Origin: Candidatus Multivorans sp.
GTDB taxonomy: Bacteria > Acidobacteriota > Thermoanaerobaculia > Multivoradales > Multivoraceae
Assembly: GCA_965247095.1 (NCBI GenBank)
Contig: OZ251997.1
Span: 1,056,001 to 1,120,000 of the forward strand
Length of the DNA: 64,000 bases
Direction: 5' to 3'
A model generated the notes under the pieces. It worked only from the letters and a program-made list of their open reading frames with translations. It was not told the DNA's origin and did not search any database. Made by a program: the position numbers and the translations under genes. Below are positions 1 through 12,542 of this stretch, piece by piece (positions within the stretch are counted from its first letter, which is position 1; every line of letters begins with the position of its first letter).

Positions 1-2
1 CG

Positions 3-1241
3 GGGTTCACTCTGTGGCTGCGGCGGCGCCCGGCAGCGCCGCTCGAGAGCTGGTCGCTGCGCGCCGGTTCGCGGATGGCGGCGGCGAACGCTTCTCTCAA
101 CCCGGGCCGGAGCCTGCTCTGCGCGGCGCTGGTGGCCAGCGCGTCGTTCGTGATCGTGGCGGTGGGCGCCTACGGCCTGCGCTTCGGCGAGGAAACGCGG
201 GACCTGGACTCGGGGGCCGGCGGCTTCGACCTGGTCGCGGAGGCGGATGTCTCGATTCTCGCCGACCTGAGCAGCGTGGACGGTCGTTTCGATTTGGGTT
301 TCGGGGAAGAGGCCTCCGAGCTCATCGGACAAAGCCAGATCGTCGCCTTCCGCACCGTGCCCGGGGACGACATCAGTTGCCTGAACCTGTTCCAGCCGGA
401 GCGTCCACGGCTGCTCGGAGCGCCGCCGGAACTGATCGAGCGCGGCGGCTTCCGCTTCCAGTCGCTCGTAGATGAGGCCGGGGAGGATCCCTGGAGGCTG
501 CTGGAGCAGGATCTCGGTCCGGGAGTCATCCCCGCGATCGGCGACTTCAACTCGGTCATGTGGATTCTGCACTCGGGCCTGGGCCAGGGGATCGAAATCG
601 AGACGGAGCGCGGCGAGACGGTCGAACTGCGGCTGGTCGGGCTCCTGCGAAAGAGCGTGTTCCAGAGCGAACTCGTGATCTCGGGAGCGAACCTAGCGAA
701 GCACTTCCCGAGCCGGACCGGCGCCTCCTACTTCCTGTTGCGGACACCGCCCGGCGAGCAGGACCGCACGATGCAGGAGCTCGAGCGAACGCTGGGCGGC
801 TTCGGCTTCGATGCGGTCCCCACGGCCCAACGGTTGCAGGCCTTCCAGGCGGTGGAGAACACCTATCTCGGCACGTTCCAGACCCTGGGCGGACTCGGCC
901 TCCTGCTCGGCACGCTGGGACTGGCGGTCGTCCTGCTCCGGAACCTGCTGGAGCGCCGGGGAGAACTTGCCACCCTGCAGGCGATCGGCTTCTGGCGGCG
1001 GGCCCTCGCCTGGCTCGTTGTGGCCGAGAACGGGCTCGTCCTGACCGCGGGCGTAGCCGTCGGCGCCGCGTCGGCGCTGGTCGCGGTGAGCCCGCACCTG
1101 CTCGGCGGACACGCACTCGTGCCGTGGCTCTCCCTCGGCCTGACTCTGGTTCTGGTGATGGCCGCTGGAACCCTGGCCAGCCTGGCCGCGGTTCGTCGGG
1201 TGACGCGGGAGGAGCTGTTGCCTGCGCTCCGGGGGAGCTAG
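3..1241 (+). CDS. ABC transporter permease, FtsX/MacB-like (5'-truncated by window edge)
   Basis: Frame open from position 3; C-terminal FtsX-type TM block LGGLGLLLGTLGLAVVLLRNLLERRGELATLQAIGF. Confidence 0.85.
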   Translation, partial: GFTLWLRRRPAAPLESWSLRAGSRMAAANASLNPGRSLLCAALVASASFVIVAVGAYGLRFGEETRDLDSGAGGFDLVAEADVSILADLSSVDGRFDLGFGEEASELIGQSQIVAFRTVPGDDISCLNLFQPERPRLLGAPPELIERGGFRFQSLVDEAGEDPWRLLEQDLGPGVIPAIGDFNSVMWILHSGLGQGIEIETERGETVELRLVGLLRKSVFQSELVISGANLAKHFPSRTGASYFLLRTPPGEQDRTMQELERTLGGFGFDAVPTAQRLQAFQAVENTYLGTFQTLGGLGLLLGTLGLAVVLLRNLLERRGELATLQAIGFWRRALAWLVVAENGLVLTAGVAVGAASALVAVSPHLLGGHALVPWLSLGLTLVLVMAAGTLASLAAVRRVTREELLPALRGS

Positions 1242-1284
1242 CGCGGCAGTATCGTCGCCGCTTCGCGGCGCGTTTCTTCTCGGA

Positions 1285-1311
1285 AGCCGGCGGGGACGCC
1301 GGCGCACCCAG
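1285..1311 (-). repeat. REP-like hairpin (CTGGGTGCGCCGGCGTCCCCGCCGGCT on - strand)
   Basis: GCCGGCG-GGGA-CGCCGGC stem with CTGGG foot; inverted relative to the similar REP at 2988-3013. Confidence 0.6.
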
Positions 1312-1380
1312 TTTCTGCCGCGCAGGCTTGCATGGAACAAAGTAGCGAAACGGCGGTGGTTCAAGAGGATGCGGGGGTTT

Positions 1381-2700
1381 TCATGCGGCTTGTTCAACGG
1401 CCACGAGCTTCAGGTTGAGGCGTCTGGCCTGTCGCTGGAGGTTCTTGAGTTGGCGTTCGCGCCGGACGGCCTCCATTTCGGCGAGGTCGCGTTCGACGTA
1501 CTCTTCGCCGTGAGTGAGCATGGCGAAGATCGTGCGGCCGAGCTGGTGGGCGGTTGCCTTGACCGCCCTCGCGGTGTCCATGCGGTGCATTCGGCGTCGG
1601 TGGGATGCGCCGATGGCGGTCTTGCTGTTGCGGGCGGTGGTTGCGGCCATTCGCAGCGCCTGGCCGACCCGGTTGGTGTGTTGTCTGGGCTTGCCTTTGA
1701 GGCGTTTGTCGCCGCTGATGTTGGTCGGCGGAGCCAGACACAGCCACGAGCAGAAGTTGCCCTGCGAGGGAAACCGGGACAGGTCCGGGCCGATCTCAGC
1801 GGCAAACGTCAGCGCCGTTTCGACGCCAATGGTCGGGATGGCGACCAGGTCCACTCCGAGCATGCGGTGCAGCCGCTGGCGCAGGGCGTGCTCGCGGACC
1901 TTCGAGTCCGGCGGCGAAGCCTCCCCTGCGCCGTCCTCAGCCAGCTTGTCGAGTTCGGCGTCGATGCGCTCCTCGCACATCTCGATCTGGCCCTGCAGCA
2001 TGTCGTGGCGCGCCAGCGCCTGCCTGAGGGCGAACAGATGCTCGTCGCGCCAATTGCCCTCGAGACTCGCTGCGATCGTCGCCGCGCTCGCCTTGCACCG
2101 GCCGTCACGGTGGCGGGCCAGCACCTCGCCGTCCCGCTCGCCGGCGACGATCGCGCGCACGATGAGCTGGCCGGTCTTGCCCATGATGTCGCTGAGCACG
2201 TTGTCCAACTGCACGTTCATCTGCAGGAGCGCCTTCTGAACGTGCTGCACCGAACGGCTGCGGTCGCGGATCAACTGCCCGCGCTGACGCGTATAGGAAC
2301 GCAGCGGGCACAGCGCGTCCGGCGCACGAAACGCGCTCCGCAGCAACCCGTAGCTCATCAACTGCCGGATCCACTGACAGTCCAACACGTCGCTCTTGCG
2401 ACCGCTCACCTGCTTCGTCGCCTTCGGATTCACCAGGTAGACCTCGAAACCCGCTCGGTCGAGCACCTCGAACACCGGGATCCAGTACACGCCCGTGGAC
2501 TCCAACGCCACCTGCCGCACGCCGTGCGCCTCAAGCCACGACGCCATCGCCTCAAGATCGCATGTGAACGACCCGAAGCTGCACACCGGGCGCTCGAAAC
2601 GCGACGGGGCCACCGCCACGTAGTGCTTGCGCTTGCCCACGTCGATCCCCGCACAATCCGGGTGAACGACCTCCAGACTCTCCGCCTTCCTGCTCGCCAT
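1381..2700 (-). CDS. IS110-family transposase/recombinase (DEDD RuvC-like + Tnp20 domain)
   Basis: GIDVGK, ALESTGVYW, KSDVLDC (D-E-D-D), IPTIG, SWLCLAP-x-N-I-SG serine motif; AGGAGG RBS before ATG 2700. Confidence 0.95.
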   Translation of the reverse strand: MASRKAESLEVVHPDCAGIDVGKRKHYVAVAPSRFERPVCSFGSFTCDLEAMASWLEAHGVRQVALESTGVYWIPVFEVLDRAGFEVYLVNPKATKQVSGRKSDVLDCQWIRQLMSYGLLRSAFRAPDALCPLRSYTRQRGQLIRDRSRSVQHVQKALLQMNVQLDNVLSDIMGKTGQLIVRAIVAGERDGEVLARHRDGRCKASAATIAASLEGNWRDEHLFALRQALARHDMLQGQIEMCEERIDAELDKLAEDGAGEASPPDSKVREHALRQRLHRMLGVDLVAIPTIGVETALTFAAEIGPDLSRFPSQGNFCSWLCLAPPTNISGDKRLKGKPRQHTNRVGQALRMAATTARNSKTAIGASHRRRMHRMDTARAVKATAHQLGRTIFAMLTHGEEYVERDLAEMEAVRRERQLKNLQRQARRLNLKLVAVEQAA

Positions 2701-2727
2701 CTCCAGCACCTCCTGTACCATTCAAAT

Positions 2728-2890
2728 GGTCGCGCTGGACAGAGACCGCGGCGGAAACGTCACTCTTGCATACGGGGTCGCGGCAAAAGCCGCGCCGCCA
2801 GCGTCAGAACGCCGATCACGGTCCGGGCCAAACTTGCATTGCGGGTGCGAACACACCAGTGCTTCGACGGCCTCGCTGCCCAGCGCGACC
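2728..2890 (-). ncRNA. Putative IS110 bridge RNA
   Basis: ~21-bp closing stem (2728-2748 with 2868-2890), two internal hairpins (2779-2794, 2844-2857), each beside a CTTGCAT copy (2765-2771, 2833-2839); A.C mismatches on + become G.U on -; TAGAGT -10-like box at 2893-2898 (-). Confidence 0.7.
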
Positions 2891-2930
2891 CAACTCTACG
2901 CCTCCTGCAACGACCGCAGAATCCACCACC

Positions 2931-3126
2931 CGTTCCCTGCGCGACAGCGCAGCGATACCGCTGTGGGTACTTGCATGGAACAAGCCCCTGGGAACGCGGG
3001 CATCCTGCCCGCATCCGGACGCCGCGTCGTTCCCTGCGCGCCAGCGCAGCGACCTCGCTGTCCCTACTTGCATGGAACAAGCCCTGGTCCCTGTGCGTCA
3101 GCGCGGCACGGACGCCGCGACTCGAC
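2931..3126. repeat. Two tandem ~97-bp imperfect units, each containing CTTGCATGGAACAAG and a REP-like hairpin
   Basis: CGTTCCCTGCGCG(A/C)CAGCGCAGCGA...CGCTGT...TACTTGCATGGAACAAGCCC at 2931 and 3028; both units end in CGGACGCCGCG. Confidence 0.85.
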
Positions 3127-3172
3127 ACCTAGCCCGCATATTTTCCGGACGGTCTGGTCGGGGTCGGCCTGA

Positions 3173-3197
3173 GGGGTGAAGCGCAGCGCTTCACTCC
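3173..3197. terminator. Strong hairpin overlapping the stop of the metallopeptidase gene
   Basis: GTGAAGCGC-A-GCGCTTCAC inverted repeat; no clear U-tract. Confidence 0.4.
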
Positions 3198-6100
3198 ACG
3201 TCGAAGTGGATCACTTCGGTGAAGTCGTGCTGCACGAAGTTGTGGGCCCGGTCGTAGAGCGTCATGTCCGAAACACCCCAGATCCCCGGCGGCGAGCCCG
3301 GCGGCAGGACATGCACCACCAAGTGCTCCTTCCACTCGTCGGGATCATCCTGTGGAAAAACTGAACCTCCCTCGTCATCAGAGGTGTAGACGAGGTGGGT
3401 GATGCCCTGTGGATCGAGAAACTTGATTGCTCCGAAGGTGTAGCCCGAGATGTTGTCGCGGATGCGAAGGCTCAACCTGACGATCGTCTCACCATACGGT
3501 TTATCGATGTTCGTGGGCTCCGCGTCGACCCTTAGCCTGTTCAAGTCGAGCTCAGGCGCCTCGGTGTCCGGGTTGGCAGTGTCGAGTCGGATGCGTTGAG
3601 GCGCTTCGTCCCGTGCCTCCTCGGTGAACCTGGCGGGAGTCCAATTGCCGGCCCGATCACTCATATGAATGAAGTTCAGGGAGTAGGTCGAAGACGGCAT
3701 GTAGTCCGGCATGATAAAGACCACTTCGCACAGCTTCTCGGCAGGTCGAAAGTCACCGTACGCATTCAGCCGATACGTGGTGGCAATCTCGTCGTTGATG
3801 GCGGCCCAGCATGCGTTGTTCTCCAGCATCGCGTTGCTTTCGTCCACCTGCCAACGCGCCTCGATCGACTGAACAACCCGGCCCTCTCGCACCTCCTGGC
3901 CCTTGCTCAACTGCGCCGATCCGGGAACATACTCAGGAGCCGTCCAGTCCTCGAGGGGGTTTTCCAAATACAGTTTCCAGCCGAAATCGTCACCCCTCTC
4001 GAATCGCTCATTGCCGACCCGGTCGGCAATGACGAGCTGCGTTGGAAGCCAGTATCCCGCCTTGCTGTACTTGCTCAGCGTCTCCGTGCCTACAAGGATG
4101 GTGCTCGCTTCGACCGGGTTGCCGTTCTCGTCTACAGAACCGAGATCCAGGTCAAAATACCTACCGATACTGCTGTTCACCCGCGTGCTTGCAGAGGCGG
4201 CGCCCTCGAGAACCCGGTCGAGGGCATGCAACTCGATTACAATGCGGAATTCCTTGTCCTCCTGAGGTCCGCCCGTCACGGTGATGTCCACCCGACGAAC
4301 CTTGCCGGGAAACACGTAGTCCGGAAACAAGTTATAGACCGGAAACGTCAAGTCCTCCCGGATCTGCGTGAGGTACAGATTCCCCTGCATGATCCGGTCC
4401 CGCACGAACTCGTACTTGGCAACGGATCGGGACCTCAGCTTGTCCGGCTCGATGATGAAGTACGAGATGGTCTCGGCCATGTCCTCGTTGGGGTTTTTCT
4501 GGTGCCCGTAGGCCGAAACGAACTCCGTCTGCTTGGTAGTGGACCAGCCCGAGGGGCTCTCCGGATCCTGATACCAGCCGCCAAGTTCTATCCAGTCGTC
4601 CAAGGTCGGTTGGTCGAAAACATGAGCCCAGAGGAAGTGCGCTTTCTCGTGGATCACCAGGCGTTGGACGTGGTCGACGTCACGCGAAAGGAAGGCTCTG
4701 TCCATGAACTCGATGTAGCCCGCGTCCGGCCAGGCGACGGCTGGGGCCGCCGGGTACAGGGGATGAGGCGTGCCGTCGAGGCGCGCCGGATGACGTGCCT
4801 GAGGCCCTGCGTCTTGTGCATGCCGCTTGGAAACTCCTCAAGCATGTTGAGCAAGGTGATGATCTCCTCGGCGTGGAAGCGCTGGAAACGGCCCGCACCT
4901 TCGTTGCCGGTCGGCCACGTCAGGCCTGCGTAGTCGGTTACCTCCGTCGTGACGCCGTACCGTTCCCGGAAGATCCTCTCGTAGGCGACTCGGTCACGGC
5001 CGTTGTCCGTCAAGTAGCGCACGACAGCGTGGTGCAGTCGTTGCGAGAACCAGGTTCCCCGCTTGCCGTCCACGGTCACCACGCGTGGATTGGCATTGAC
5101 GAAGGCGGCTTCGGAGATGAAGACGGTGGGGGAACCCCGGTGCGTCCCGATCTGGATGTCGCCGTGAATGAAGCTGGGCGTCAGAAGCCACTGAGAAGGG
5201 ACCAGAGACTGTTTGCCGTATGGGTTCCTTAGGTCCTGCGGGATGGAACGCATGGTCGTCAGCAGCCGCCAAGCGTGTTCCTGCGACCAGGAAGCGTCGT
5301 CGGAATCCACAAGCAGGAGGTTGTAGTCATACGCCAGGATGTTCGCGGACGAGTTGTCGGCCACCCGGACCGTCTCACCCTCGAACTCGACCTCGAGCGG
5401 TCTGTTCACGGCCGCCGAGTACTCGGTGCCGGCGGTGCTCTGATCCTCTTCCCAGTGGAAGACGAACGGGTCCGAAGGAATCGGCGTCAGGTCGAACGGT
5501 TCGACGAGGCCCGTATGCGGAAGCTCGATCAGCCGTGCGGGCGTGGCGCGATAGCCCTCGGCGCGCGCTTTGACGGCGTACTTGCCGGCGGCGAGGTCGT
5601 GGAATCCGAACCAGCCGGAGGCGTTCGGGTTCGTGACCTGGAGAACGCCCTTGGCGGTAAGCAGTACTTCGACATCCTCGTAGGCGCCGAGATAGCCGAT
5701 GACCTGGCCCTCGAACGAGTGTTCTCCTTTGACAGGGTCATCGTCGGCACAAGCGAACGCCTCGAGGTCGCTCGTCGCCGCGGCGGTCTGGTTGAAGCGG
5801 TTCGTGTGCGTCCAGGGGACGTCGCCGCCGGGGGACTCGATCGAGAGGTTGAACGCGAGGGTCGTCACCGGCCCGACGAACACCCAACGGTGGCCGTTCA
5901 CGGCACACCCGTCGAGCACCTTGATCAGCACCTCCGCATTGTCGCGATGGAAGAAGTACAGGATGGCGGATTGCTCGGAGTTCAGACCGTAGTCCCGCAC
6001 CTCCTCAAGCACCGATTCGCCCTCTCTGACGTGTTCGACCCACATGTTGACCGTGAAGCCCGGTCGCCGTATCGTCGACGCGCAAGTTAAACGCCAGCGT

Positions 6101-11839: not shown

Positions 11840-12480
11840 ACGAAACAAGGATTGGCGGCGAGTCGTCCCTGCACCCAGAGGACGATGGCTTGCCAGCACA
11901 CAAACCGGCCGTCCGGGGCTCGGCCAGTGGCCCGGTCGATGGCCCCGAGGACGGTCAACTCGTTCGCCGTGCCGCGGCCGGCGACCGGGATGCGTTCGAA
12001 ACCCTCGTCGTGCGCTACGAGACGCCCCTGCGCAAGCTGGTCTACGGCTATGTGCTCGACTGGGAGGTCGCCGAGGACGTGGCTCAGGATGCCTTCCTGC
12101 TGGCCTTCAGGAAGCTCGACCGGTTGGACGAGCCCGCGGCCTTCAAGAGCTGGCTCTACCGGATCGCAATCAACCGGGCTCACGACGAGCTGCGGCGCAA
12201 GTCCCGCTGGGGACGCCGGCTGGACCGCAACGTGGATGACGAGGCGCTTGCCGAACTGCCGGCGGCCGGCGCCGAGTCCGCGGTGGAGTCGCGGCTCCTG
12301 CGCCGTGCTCTGGTGCGGGCGCTGGCCGAACTGCCGAAAAGCCAGCGCACGGCGGTGGTGCTGAAGGACCTGGTGGGGATGAAGTACGTCGAGATTGCGG
12401 AGCTCCTGGACTGTCCGATCGGGACAGCGCAGATCCGGGTGCATCGGGGCCGCCGCCAGTTGCGGCGTCGGCTCGGCTAG
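11836..12480 (+). CDS. ECF RNA polymerase sigma factor
   Basis: AEDVAQDAF, FKSWLYRIAIN (region 2); YVEIAELLDCPIGT (region 4). Confidence 0.93.
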   Translation: MNETRIGGESSLHPEDDGLPAHKPAVRGSASGPVDGPEDGQLVRRAAAGDRDAFETLVVRYETPLRKLVYGYVLDWEVAEDVAQDAFLLAFRKLDRLDEPAAFKSWLYRIAINRAHDELRRKSRWGRRLDRNVDDEALAELPAAGAESAVESRLLRRALVRALAELPKSQRTAVVLKDLVGMKYVEIAELLDCPIGTAQIRVHRGRRQLRRRLG

Positions 12481-12482
12481 GA

Positions 12483-12542
12483 GTCGAGTCGCGGCGTCCG
12501 CGCCGCGCTGACGCACAGGAAACATGGCTTGTTCCATGCAAG
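12483..12542 (-). repeat. Dispersed 60-bp repeat carrying the IS110 junction motif
   Basis: Reverse complement is 56/60 identical to 3067-3126 and begins CTTGCATGGAACAAG. Confidence 0.9.

Follow-up and report, generated by a model that had tools for sequence, protein, structure and literature searches.

An IS110-family insertion sequence with one guide in both bridge RNA loops, probably retargeted to the right end of its own family

An IS110-family insertion sequence (IS) was recognized at positions 1327-2969, minus strand, of the window (the whole stretch of 64,000 nucleotides that was analysed), where a recombinase gene is accompanied by a left-end bridge RNA; the assignment is based on Pfam matches, RNA fold and covariation of guides with junctions. 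Both loops of this RNA carry the same heptamer, AUGCAAG. We put a probability of roughly 0.7 on the reading that loop 1 of the element has been retargeted to the family's own right-end (RE) terminus and that the element stacks on resident MITEs. To judge from sequence, it would land next to the tail of related elements and build head-to-tail stacks. RNA-guided recombination itself is already known; the use of one guide in both loops is what is unusual here.

The recombinase gene (1381..2700, minus strand; 439 aa) was delimited by Pfam matches and by comparison of copies. PF01548 (N-terminal DEDD domain, DEDD_Tnp_IS110) is matched at residues 24-168 with E 5.3e-25, and PF02371 (C-terminal Tnp domain, Transposase_20) at residues 294-367 with E 2.7e-12; as far as domain matches tell, this is the architecture expected of IS110-group recombinases. 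The start is probably the ATG at 2700; comparison with genome copy 2 shows that the alternative ATG at 2721 is ATC there. Only two autonomous copies of the IS were found in its own genome (tblastn). The left-end (LE) terminus, named R (2932..2969, minus strand; copy comparison), begins on the tnp strand with TACCCACAGCGG... right after the core; R is common to both IS copies and to the X and Y MITEs, and relatives have homologous LE starts.

The bridge RNA core (2728..2889, minus strand) consists of a closing stem around a 5' loop of target-binding type (loop 1) and a 3' loop of donor-binding type (loop 2). A preliminary description of this DNA had read two hairpins in a closing stem, each with CTTGCAT beside it (2765-2771 and 2833-2839), and folding of 2720-2900 agrees: the minus strand forms a closing stem of 15-17 bp that encloses two hairpins, with an MFE of -86.4 kcal/mol (z = -3.0; 0/200 shuffles fold as well), and the plus strand reaches -78.8 kcal/mol. 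For the consensus fold, the window copy was aligned with 23 of 28 distinct non-own RNA regions; rows omitted were relatives L035 (3' part missing), L062 (5' half replaced) and L068 (distant, poorly aligned) and, as near-copies, L051 (of L049), L061 (of L046) and genome copy 2. The 24 RNAs have 41 consensus pairs, 26 of them with compensatory changes on both sides; 95.1% of cells are paired, against 85.9% in shuffles (0/500 as high), and slid-partner controls gave 37-43%. The predicted fold is supported by covariation across 24 distinct RNAs. One consensus pair is U.G in 24/24 RNAs and another is G.U in 19/24; such pairs would become mismatches on the opposite strand, which marks the recombinase strand as the structured one. 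The earlier reading as an IS110 element whose two-loop bridge RNA is encoded on the recombinase strand is upheld by the Pfam matches and by these pairs. A scan of 1-6000 against Rfam gave nothing at gathering score (best E = 0.75, other strand, unrelated family).

The loop-1 3'-strand guide AUGCAAG (2833..2839, minus strand) matches the 7 nt flanking the left end, that is, target half-site and core; the loop-2 3'-strand guide AUGCAAG (2765..2771, minus strand) matches the RE terminus, that is, donor half-site and core. The identity of the two heptamers had been noticed before and is confirmed here, and co-variation of loop and junction sequences among homologues, earlier put forward as a test, is observed as well. 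Of 24 distinct bridge RNAs, 20 have a loop-1 heptamer identical to the 7 nt 5' of the LE start, and the other four have one mismatch; 11 different heptamers occur, e.g. CCAGGAG, ATGAAAG, ATGCGAG, ATTGTAG and GAGGGAG. For loop 2, 23/24 RNAs have a heptamer identical to the final 7 nt of the RE and the remaining RNA has one mismatch, with nine different heptamers. Loop-to-target-flank and loop-to-own-end covariation, both expected of IS110 bridge RNAs, thus appear in these alignments. All 48 loop heptamers end in AG, and at both junctions the core reads AG on the tnp strand (CT on the plus strand). The base that comes after the loop-1 heptamer varies with the first nucleotide of the LE: U/T in most relatives, and C with C as first LE nucleotide in L044, L046, L064, L069 and L072. 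A loop-2 guide for the LE half was sought by eye in the aligned RNAs and junctions, and no consistent register was obtained.

The 14-mer M (CTTGCATGGAACAA) had been reported at both junctions of the element, and its copies at 1327-1340 and 2970-2983 were recovered together with those at 3067-3080 (plus strand) and 12529-12542 (minus strand): M thus occurs four times without mismatch in the window, where 0.09 occurrences are expected, a count reached by 0/100 shuffles. The first copy (1327..1340) is the RE terminus of the IS, with TTGTTCCATGCAAG on the tnp strand, minus, ending in core AG. The second had been counted to the IS as well and has to be reassigned, as it belongs to a neighbouring Y MITE. 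There are 28 exact copies of M in the genome (35 allowing up to one mismatch), so M is not private to the IS at 1327-2969. Relatives have an RE that closes with this 14-mer or with one nearly identical to it, irrespective of the left flank, and by this comparison M is the conserved right-end terminus of the family. Both junctions share the core dinucleotide, and no target-site duplication is made by the element, the direct repeat of M being explained by homologous right ends.

The stack is made up as follows. On the host side of the right-end junction lies A-REP (1237..1326), a palindromic REP-like repeat (...CTGCCGCGCAGG) that flanks the stack, has genome copies of 85-97% identity and is of a type found beside M at many sites. 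The IS is followed by the Y MITE (97 bp; 2970..3066, minus strand), with an R-like LE start at 3029-3066, an internal REP and M at 2970-2983, the last being, from its position, the landing site of the IS; two more Y units in the genome each lie between an M and a T element. Next comes a T MITE (66 bp; 3067..3132, minus strand) with M at 3067-3080, an LE-like body and CTAGGTG at its far end (plus strand CACCTAG); homology links the T body to the LE of relatives, and the far end of the MITE matches CTAGGAG, which most relatives target. A second T MITE (12477..12542, plus strand) has its M end unoccupied and is a paralogous 'empty' landing site. T-bodied M sites number 23 in the genome.

Unit order is T MITE, Y MITE, then IS in the window. 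In the element's own genome, all ten IS, X and Y units lie directly after another unit's M (10/10), and in 7/7 stacks the T unit adjoins CTAGGAG and the X, Y and IS units are distal to it; this order fits insertion after M rather than after CTAGGAG. At two 'Z' junctions M is joined straight to the start of a T body (GACTCGA|CT, plus strand), which places the crossover at the core. M|LE-start junctions are present also in genomes whose element has unequal loop guides, and the stack alone is therefore no evidence for retargeting.

The proposed explanation is that the heptamer on the 3' strand of each loop has the sense of the tnp-strand DNA ending in core AG, loop 1 specifying the flank joined to the left end and loop 2 the element's own RE terminus. 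In the window element, loop 1 would have been changed from the relatives' usual guide to AUGCAAG and would thus be guided to the RE terminus (...TTGTTCCATGCAAG) of resident family members, chiefly the 66-bp T MITEs; the retargeted guide would then have driven these insertions. Insertion after a resident RE terminus would put the newcomer's own right-end 14-mer downstream of the resident one, so that the 14-mer brackets the IS, and the local array would have grown in the order T, then Y, then IS. The left junction (M|LE start) would coincide with the circle (donor) junction at the positions that the guides read, and the right junction (M|host flank) would again be a target-type site, so integration would leave its sites intact. 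The earlier suggestion that every insertion leaves two reusable sites follows from this anatomy. Sites kept after integration should relax the bias of insertion over excision, with loss of directionality, and repeated stacking and M-to-M exchange may be possible.

The distribution of guides among relatives bears on this reading. In most relatives loop 1 has CUAGGAG and loop 2 has AUGCAAG; an identical heptamer in both loops was found in 3/24 RNAs, those of the window element, L033 and L038. In the protein tree these same-guide elements sit among relatives with different guides, and between L033 and its sister L034 (support 97) the loop-1 heptamer and the left flank differ together. The loop-1 heptamer matches an RE-type terminus in 7/24 RNAs, in at least three places on a quick tree; the label 'RE-end targeting' changes four times on that tree, or three times if the frameshifted L049 is discounted. 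Four rows of the quick tree (L049, L059, L069 and L072) rest on translations that run through frameshifts or stops, and two of them, L049 and L072, have long branches.

The alternative that survives best is that the stacks came from half-match recombination through loop 2 only, or from homologous exchange between copies of M, the loop-1 identity being incidental or the mark of a decayed, unused loop. We consider it improbable. Half-match events and tandem units with LD-only boundaries are described in the available parts of two preprints (10.64898/2026.08.31.748434, 10.64898/2026.08.14.744561), and stacks occur, as noted, in genomes with unequal guides. The 5' strand of loop 1 also speaks for it. 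Its variable 7-mer GUCGAAG (2863..2869, minus strand), a candidate guide for the other target half, fails to match the flanks of the window element: it is complementary to the right flanks of both copies at 3/7 positions (4/7 with wobble). Among relatives not targeting RE ends, the corresponding 7-mer is complementary to the right flank (at least 5/7) in 13/34 guide/flank combinations; in the RE-end-targeting class, window element included, 5/7 is reached in 0/8. Either the other target half is unread here, or these insertions were half-match events. Against this alternative stand loop-1 flanks and stems that remain conserved, a heptamer that elsewhere tracks the left flank (20/24), its match to an RE-type terminus in at least three places on the tree, and the order of units in 7/7 stacks, which fits insertion after M.

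It had also been proposed that donor equals target, the two looking nearly the same over 14 bp, and that any two genomic copies of the motif could be recombined; taken in full, this would make the enzyme a symmetric, 'lox-like' recombinase. The identical 14-mer at both junctions, the equal heptamers and the 28 exact genome copies would suit such an enzyme, and one half-site and the core are indeed shared. The common part ends there: beyond the core the donor goes on with TACCCACAGCGG... (TACCCAC..., the LE start), and targets continue with CCTGCGC..., CGTGCGC... or the start of another unit. The 5' strands of the loops differ likewise (GUCGAAG-CACU in loop 1, GUUCUGA-CGCU in loop 2) and stand in different structural contexts, and relatives have the 14-mer at the right end only, with CTAGGAG as left flank. 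Full symmetry is unlikely, somewhat more so than the half-match alternative; the identity over 14 bp arises because the target is the homologous RE terminus of a resident sister element. That the 14-mer is a target-site duplication, or a mere REP motif unrelated to the element, is very improbable: it does recur in direct orientation at both junctions and is abundant in the genome, but relatives carry it on the right only, with other left flanks, T MITEs have it at one end only, and loop 2 covaries with it.

The retargeting reading can be extended, more tentatively and at somewhat less than even odds, to a target loop rewritten to the element's own donor half, so that both sites are rebuilt on integration and the reaction is without built-in directionality. 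The element would then be an RNA-guided cassette stacker, somewhat integron-like, in which 14-mer-ended units are added, removed or exchanged at any 14-mer, and which would have arisen at least three times among elements shared by Acidobacteriota and Gammaproteobacteria genomes.

With IS621 and the IS110 group (Durrant 2024, PMC11208160; Hiraizumi 2024, PMC11208158) the window element shares a recombinase with DEDD and Tnp domains, a non-coding RNA at the left end whose two internal loops read target and element ends, and a core dinucleotide common to both loops; the nucleotide beside the loop-1 guide resembles the handshake positions (PMC11208158). The LT- and LD-sense guides of IS621 are placed 5' of each stem-loop, and its tnp-strand core reads CT (PMC11208158), whereas the corresponding guides of the window element lie 3' of the stem-loop and its core is AG on that strand; polarity is thus reversed relative to IS621, and the shared guide may be the structural counterpart of RTG and RDG. 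Donor and target of IS621 share the core only; those of the window element also share the 7-nt guided half (14 bp of DNA), and the window element, unlike IS621, would keep its integration sites.

ISPpu9/MITEPpu9 and ISPpu10 (PMC12288879; 10.64898/2026.03.19.712850) resemble it in having AG at both ends in tnp orientation and REP-associated targets, modular circles being a feature of theirs; ISPpu9/MITEPpu9 also has MITE derivatives with IS ends, in tandem with the IS, and reversed guide strand polarity is reported for ISPpu10 (same sources). Their targets are REP sequences, and in the text available from these sources the target guide is not described as equal to the donor guide; in the window element the two are equal, so that its landing site is the family's own right end. 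The closest Pseudomonas match to the window element is L050, with 57% identity, and ISPpu9 and ISPpu10 are likened to it by description only. Expanded IS110 loci (Hu et al., 10.64898/2026.08.14.744561) are similar in their tandem non-coding units or whole modules beside IS110 transposases; unit boundaries there keep donor-half (LD-only) matches, and the pattern is attributed to half-match tolerance. The target loop of the window element encodes the donor half, so both sites would be regenerated. Among the papers listed by literature searches, no title or abstract opening describes a naturally occurring bridge RNA whose two loops bear one guide; supplements may bear on this.

Bridge recombinases are under development as programmable genome-writing tools. 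Their bias of insertion over excision has been attributed to the splitting of donor and target into hybrid junctions (Nature 2026, PMC13626964; Hu et al., 10.64898/2026.08.14.744561). A natural element with one guided half common to donor and target is a ready-made test of that idea: with a left junction equal to the donor and a right junction equal to the target, the insertion and excision reactions should become equivalent. An RNA-level explanation is also offered for tandem IS110/MITE arrays, and retargeting of a guide to the family's own end would be a recurring evolutionary move, for which a landing site that disrupts no gene is a plausible reason.

We infer that the bridge RNA is made and used. 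A weak hint of transcription comes from RNA runs in two studies, whose contigs extend over 2743-2900 and 2703-2985; a promoter scan gave 0 sigma-70-like sites. No circle junction or excised site was present in the contigs of four runs, which drop rare forms and cannot show absence. Joints in reads (e.g. 1326 to 3067, 1308 to 3080) were considered as excision products and rejected: they fit paralogous A-REP|M-T sites, each side having three other letters and the letters in between agreeing with genome site 3965946. An orthologous empty site was not found in G016, the closest relative looked at; the flanking gene at 1-1239 has a 92% orthologue there, and the region downstream of that orthologue differs, leaving no empty site to compare.

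A minor observation concerns the non-coding RE spacer between stop codon and M (1341..1380, minus strand; ~39 nt), which is conserved with L001. Genome copy 2 has an unrelated sequence of equal length in this place. A variable 'cassette' was considered and dropped, since the spacer versions recur, that of copy 1 being kept in L001 and that of copy 2 being partly like L002; from these resemblances the difference is read as an exchange between sub-lineages.

The insertion sequence (IS) at 1327-2969 (-) is a bridge-RNA element of the IS110 type with reversed polarity, in a layout like that of ISPpu9 and ISPpu10, and its target guide is identical to its donor guide. The observation made in the preliminary description is confirmed, and its interpretation, a recombinase for which donor equals target, is partly supported. 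The ORF at 1381..2721 (-) encodes an IS110-family recombinase (Pfam PF01548 and PF02371); since position 2721 is ATG in this copy and ATC in the second genomic copy, and relatives use the following ATG as their start codon, the gene probably occupies 1381..2700 (-) and encodes 439 aa. In the source genome (single contig, 4.62 Mb, GC 67.7%), tblastn found only two copies of the gene, the second at genome positions 4033500-4035107 with 99.4% identity to 1380-2987 of the window.

The 14-mer M, CTTGCATGGAACAA, is present at both junctions as originally described (1327 and 2970, both +), and again at 3067 (+) and 12529 (-), giving four matches in the window against 0.09 expected; it has 28 exact copies genome-wide, and a system of repeats is built around it. 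In both IS copies M lies exactly 39 nt past the stop codon, and at the other end it stands directly beyond the 38-nt left-end terminus R (GTTCCC...GGGTA, + strand). The 39-nt spacers are equal in length and unrelated in sequence (window 1341-1379 vs. genome 4033461-4033499); the first matches L001, the closest relative, and the second partly resembles the relative L002, which suggests that right ends have been exchanged between sub-lineages. Element ends were defined from multi-copy families. Members of a family from Ca. Multivorans with 86% identity begin immediately behind a variable flank whose last bases are CTAGGAG, and end in ...TTGTTCCATGCAAG, followed by a variable flank; M is therefore the terminus that the family conserves at its right end, and not a duplication.

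Scanning species-representative genomes turned up 77 loci of recombinase relatives (31-94% identity), hosted by Ca. Multivorans (labelled Acidobacteriota) and several gammaproteobacterial MAG lineages. The close relatives (57-94%) span Ca. Multivorans and several gammaproteobacterial MAG lineages (Foliamicus, Azotimanducaceae, Pseudomonadales), a distribution that implies transfer across phyla. L001 (94% at the amino acid level) keeps the gene and right end, and lacks the bridge-RNA region in the 340 nt upstream; it is probably a truncated copy relying on RNA in trans, or dead.

The closing stem with two hairpins, proposed earlier for the recombinase strand, was recovered at 2720-2900 on the minus strand (-86.4 kcal/mol, z = -3.0; plus strand, -78.8 kcal/mol); no Rfam family matches it. 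An alignment of 24 distinct upstream regions, namely the window copy and 23 of the 28 that were found, gave a consensus fold of 41 pairs, with compensatory changes in 26; 95.1% of all cells pair, against 85.9% in shuffles and 37-43% in slid-partner controls, and on no measure did any of 500 shuffles score as high as the alignment itself. One U.G pair occurs in all 24 RNAs and one G.U pair in 19, so that the structured strand is the recombinase strand.

CTTGCAT stands beside both hairpins (2765-2771 and 2833-2839), as had been noticed, and the loop heptamers do follow the junctions in homologues: the heptamer on the 3' strand of loop 1 (the 5' hairpin, target-binding type) is identical to the 7 nt that abut the left-end start on its 5' side in 20/24 RNAs, with one mismatch in the other four, and that of loop 2 (3', donor-binding type) is identical to the final 7 nt at the right end in 23/24. 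There are 11 distinct heptamers in loop 1 and nine in loop 2, all ending in AG. The nucleotide after the loop-1 heptamer tracks the first left-end nucleotide (U with T in most, C with C in five lineages; exceptions L050, L052 and L055), and resembles a handshake position.

In most relatives the loop-1 heptamer is CUAGGAG and the loop-2 heptamer AUGCAAG; the two are identical in three of the 24 (the window element, L033 and L038), and loop 1 of L036, L049 and L039 carries the right-end heptamer of another lineage, the left end of L049 starting after the right end of L044 in the same genome. A quick protein tree pairs the window clade with a CTAGGAG element as its sister, pairs L033 with L034 (CTAGGAG; support 97), and groups L036, L038 and L039 apart from these in a clade of their own (support 99); right-end targeting, mapped as a label on this tree, takes four changes, or three without L049, which is frameshifted.

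The guide of the window element would thus direct it to the terminus that members of its own family carry at their right ends, which would account both for the M copies bracketing the IS and for the way units are ordered in the stacks described below. Donor (circle junction) and target have the guided half and the core in common, and it is to this extent that donor equals target; since the two are right ends related by homology, the DNA they share extends to 14 bp. Past the core the donor reads TACCCAC... and the targets CCTGCGC..., CGTGCGC... or the start of another unit, and the 5' strands of the two loops differ. Given the shared half and core, an integrated copy would present a donor-type site at its left junction and a target-type site at its right. 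Insertion bias is tied, in the abstract of a 2026 structural paper (PMC13626964), to hybrid junctions binding across both loops; for the window element the asymmetry should largely vanish. Junctions of M with a left-end start are present also in genomes whose elements carry unequal guides.

On its 5' strand, loop 1 carries a variable 7-mer. In elements not targeting right ends this 7-mer tends to be complementary to the right flank: of 34 distinct guide/flank combinations, 13 pair at 5/7 positions or better (mean 3.76 vs. 2.9 for mismatched pairs). In the window element the 5'-strand segment matches the right flanks at only 3/7 positions, and none of eight combinations in the right-end class reaches 5/7; the other half of the target may therefore go unread, or these insertions may be half-match events, as reported for IS621 in a preprint (10.64898/2026.08.31.748434).

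The family follows the bridge-RNA logic of Durrant 2024 (PMC11208160) and Hiraizumi 2024 (PMC11208158); IS621 has its LT- and LD-sense guides 5' of the stem-loop and a CT core (PMC11208158), whereas here they lie 3' of it and the core is AG on the recombinase (tnp) strand. The same core on that strand is reported for ISPpu9 (PMC12288879), and reversed guide polarity for ISPpu10 (preprint 10.64898/2026.03.19.712850). RNA-library contigs from two studies cover 2743-2900 and 2703-2985; no circle joint was found in contigs of four runs, no promoter-like site in a promoter scan, and no orthologous empty site in the one relative inspected. Two large ORFs, of 504 and 463 aa, lie downstream at 3191-6045 (-) and have several paralogue-like matches (76-80%), clustered, in relatives.

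Three kinds of MITE unit carry M: T (66 bp, 23 in the genome; M, a body, then CTCCTAG), X (144 bp, five clear copies) and Y (97 bp, three copies), the latter two with R at the start and M at the end like the IS. Seven stacks occur in the genome, in the + strand order host palindromic repeat (A-REP), M-bounded X, Y or IS units, T, CTCCTAG; that in the window comprises A-REP (1237-1326), IS (1327-2969), Y (2970-3066) and T (3067-3132). Each of the 10 units of the X, Y or IS type comes after the M of another unit, and the unit adjoining CTAGGAG is T in 7/7 stacks. With a left-end-like body and a right-end terminus after CTAGGAG, T units look like MITEs of a CTAGGAG-targeting form, of which tblastn with the recombinase found no autonomous copy left in this genome. 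In a 'Z' arrangement, at genome positions 2035507-2035625 and 196511-196630, a T body lacking CTAGGAG directly follows the M of another T, the junction lying exactly at the core; T units thus occur inserted, or duplicated, at M sites as well. A very abundant REP-like repeat, some 36 bp long (GGGAACGCGGGC...GCCCGCATCC), lies at 2987-3022 and at about 60 or more genome sites; it is embedded in X and Y units, and is found also downstream of the orthologous gene in a relative's genome (G016). The genome of L036 (G035) has arrays of M-type junctions with left-end starts at 498357-498594 and 1769741-1769867, with a period of 111 nt, which are tandem MITE stacks in another lineage.
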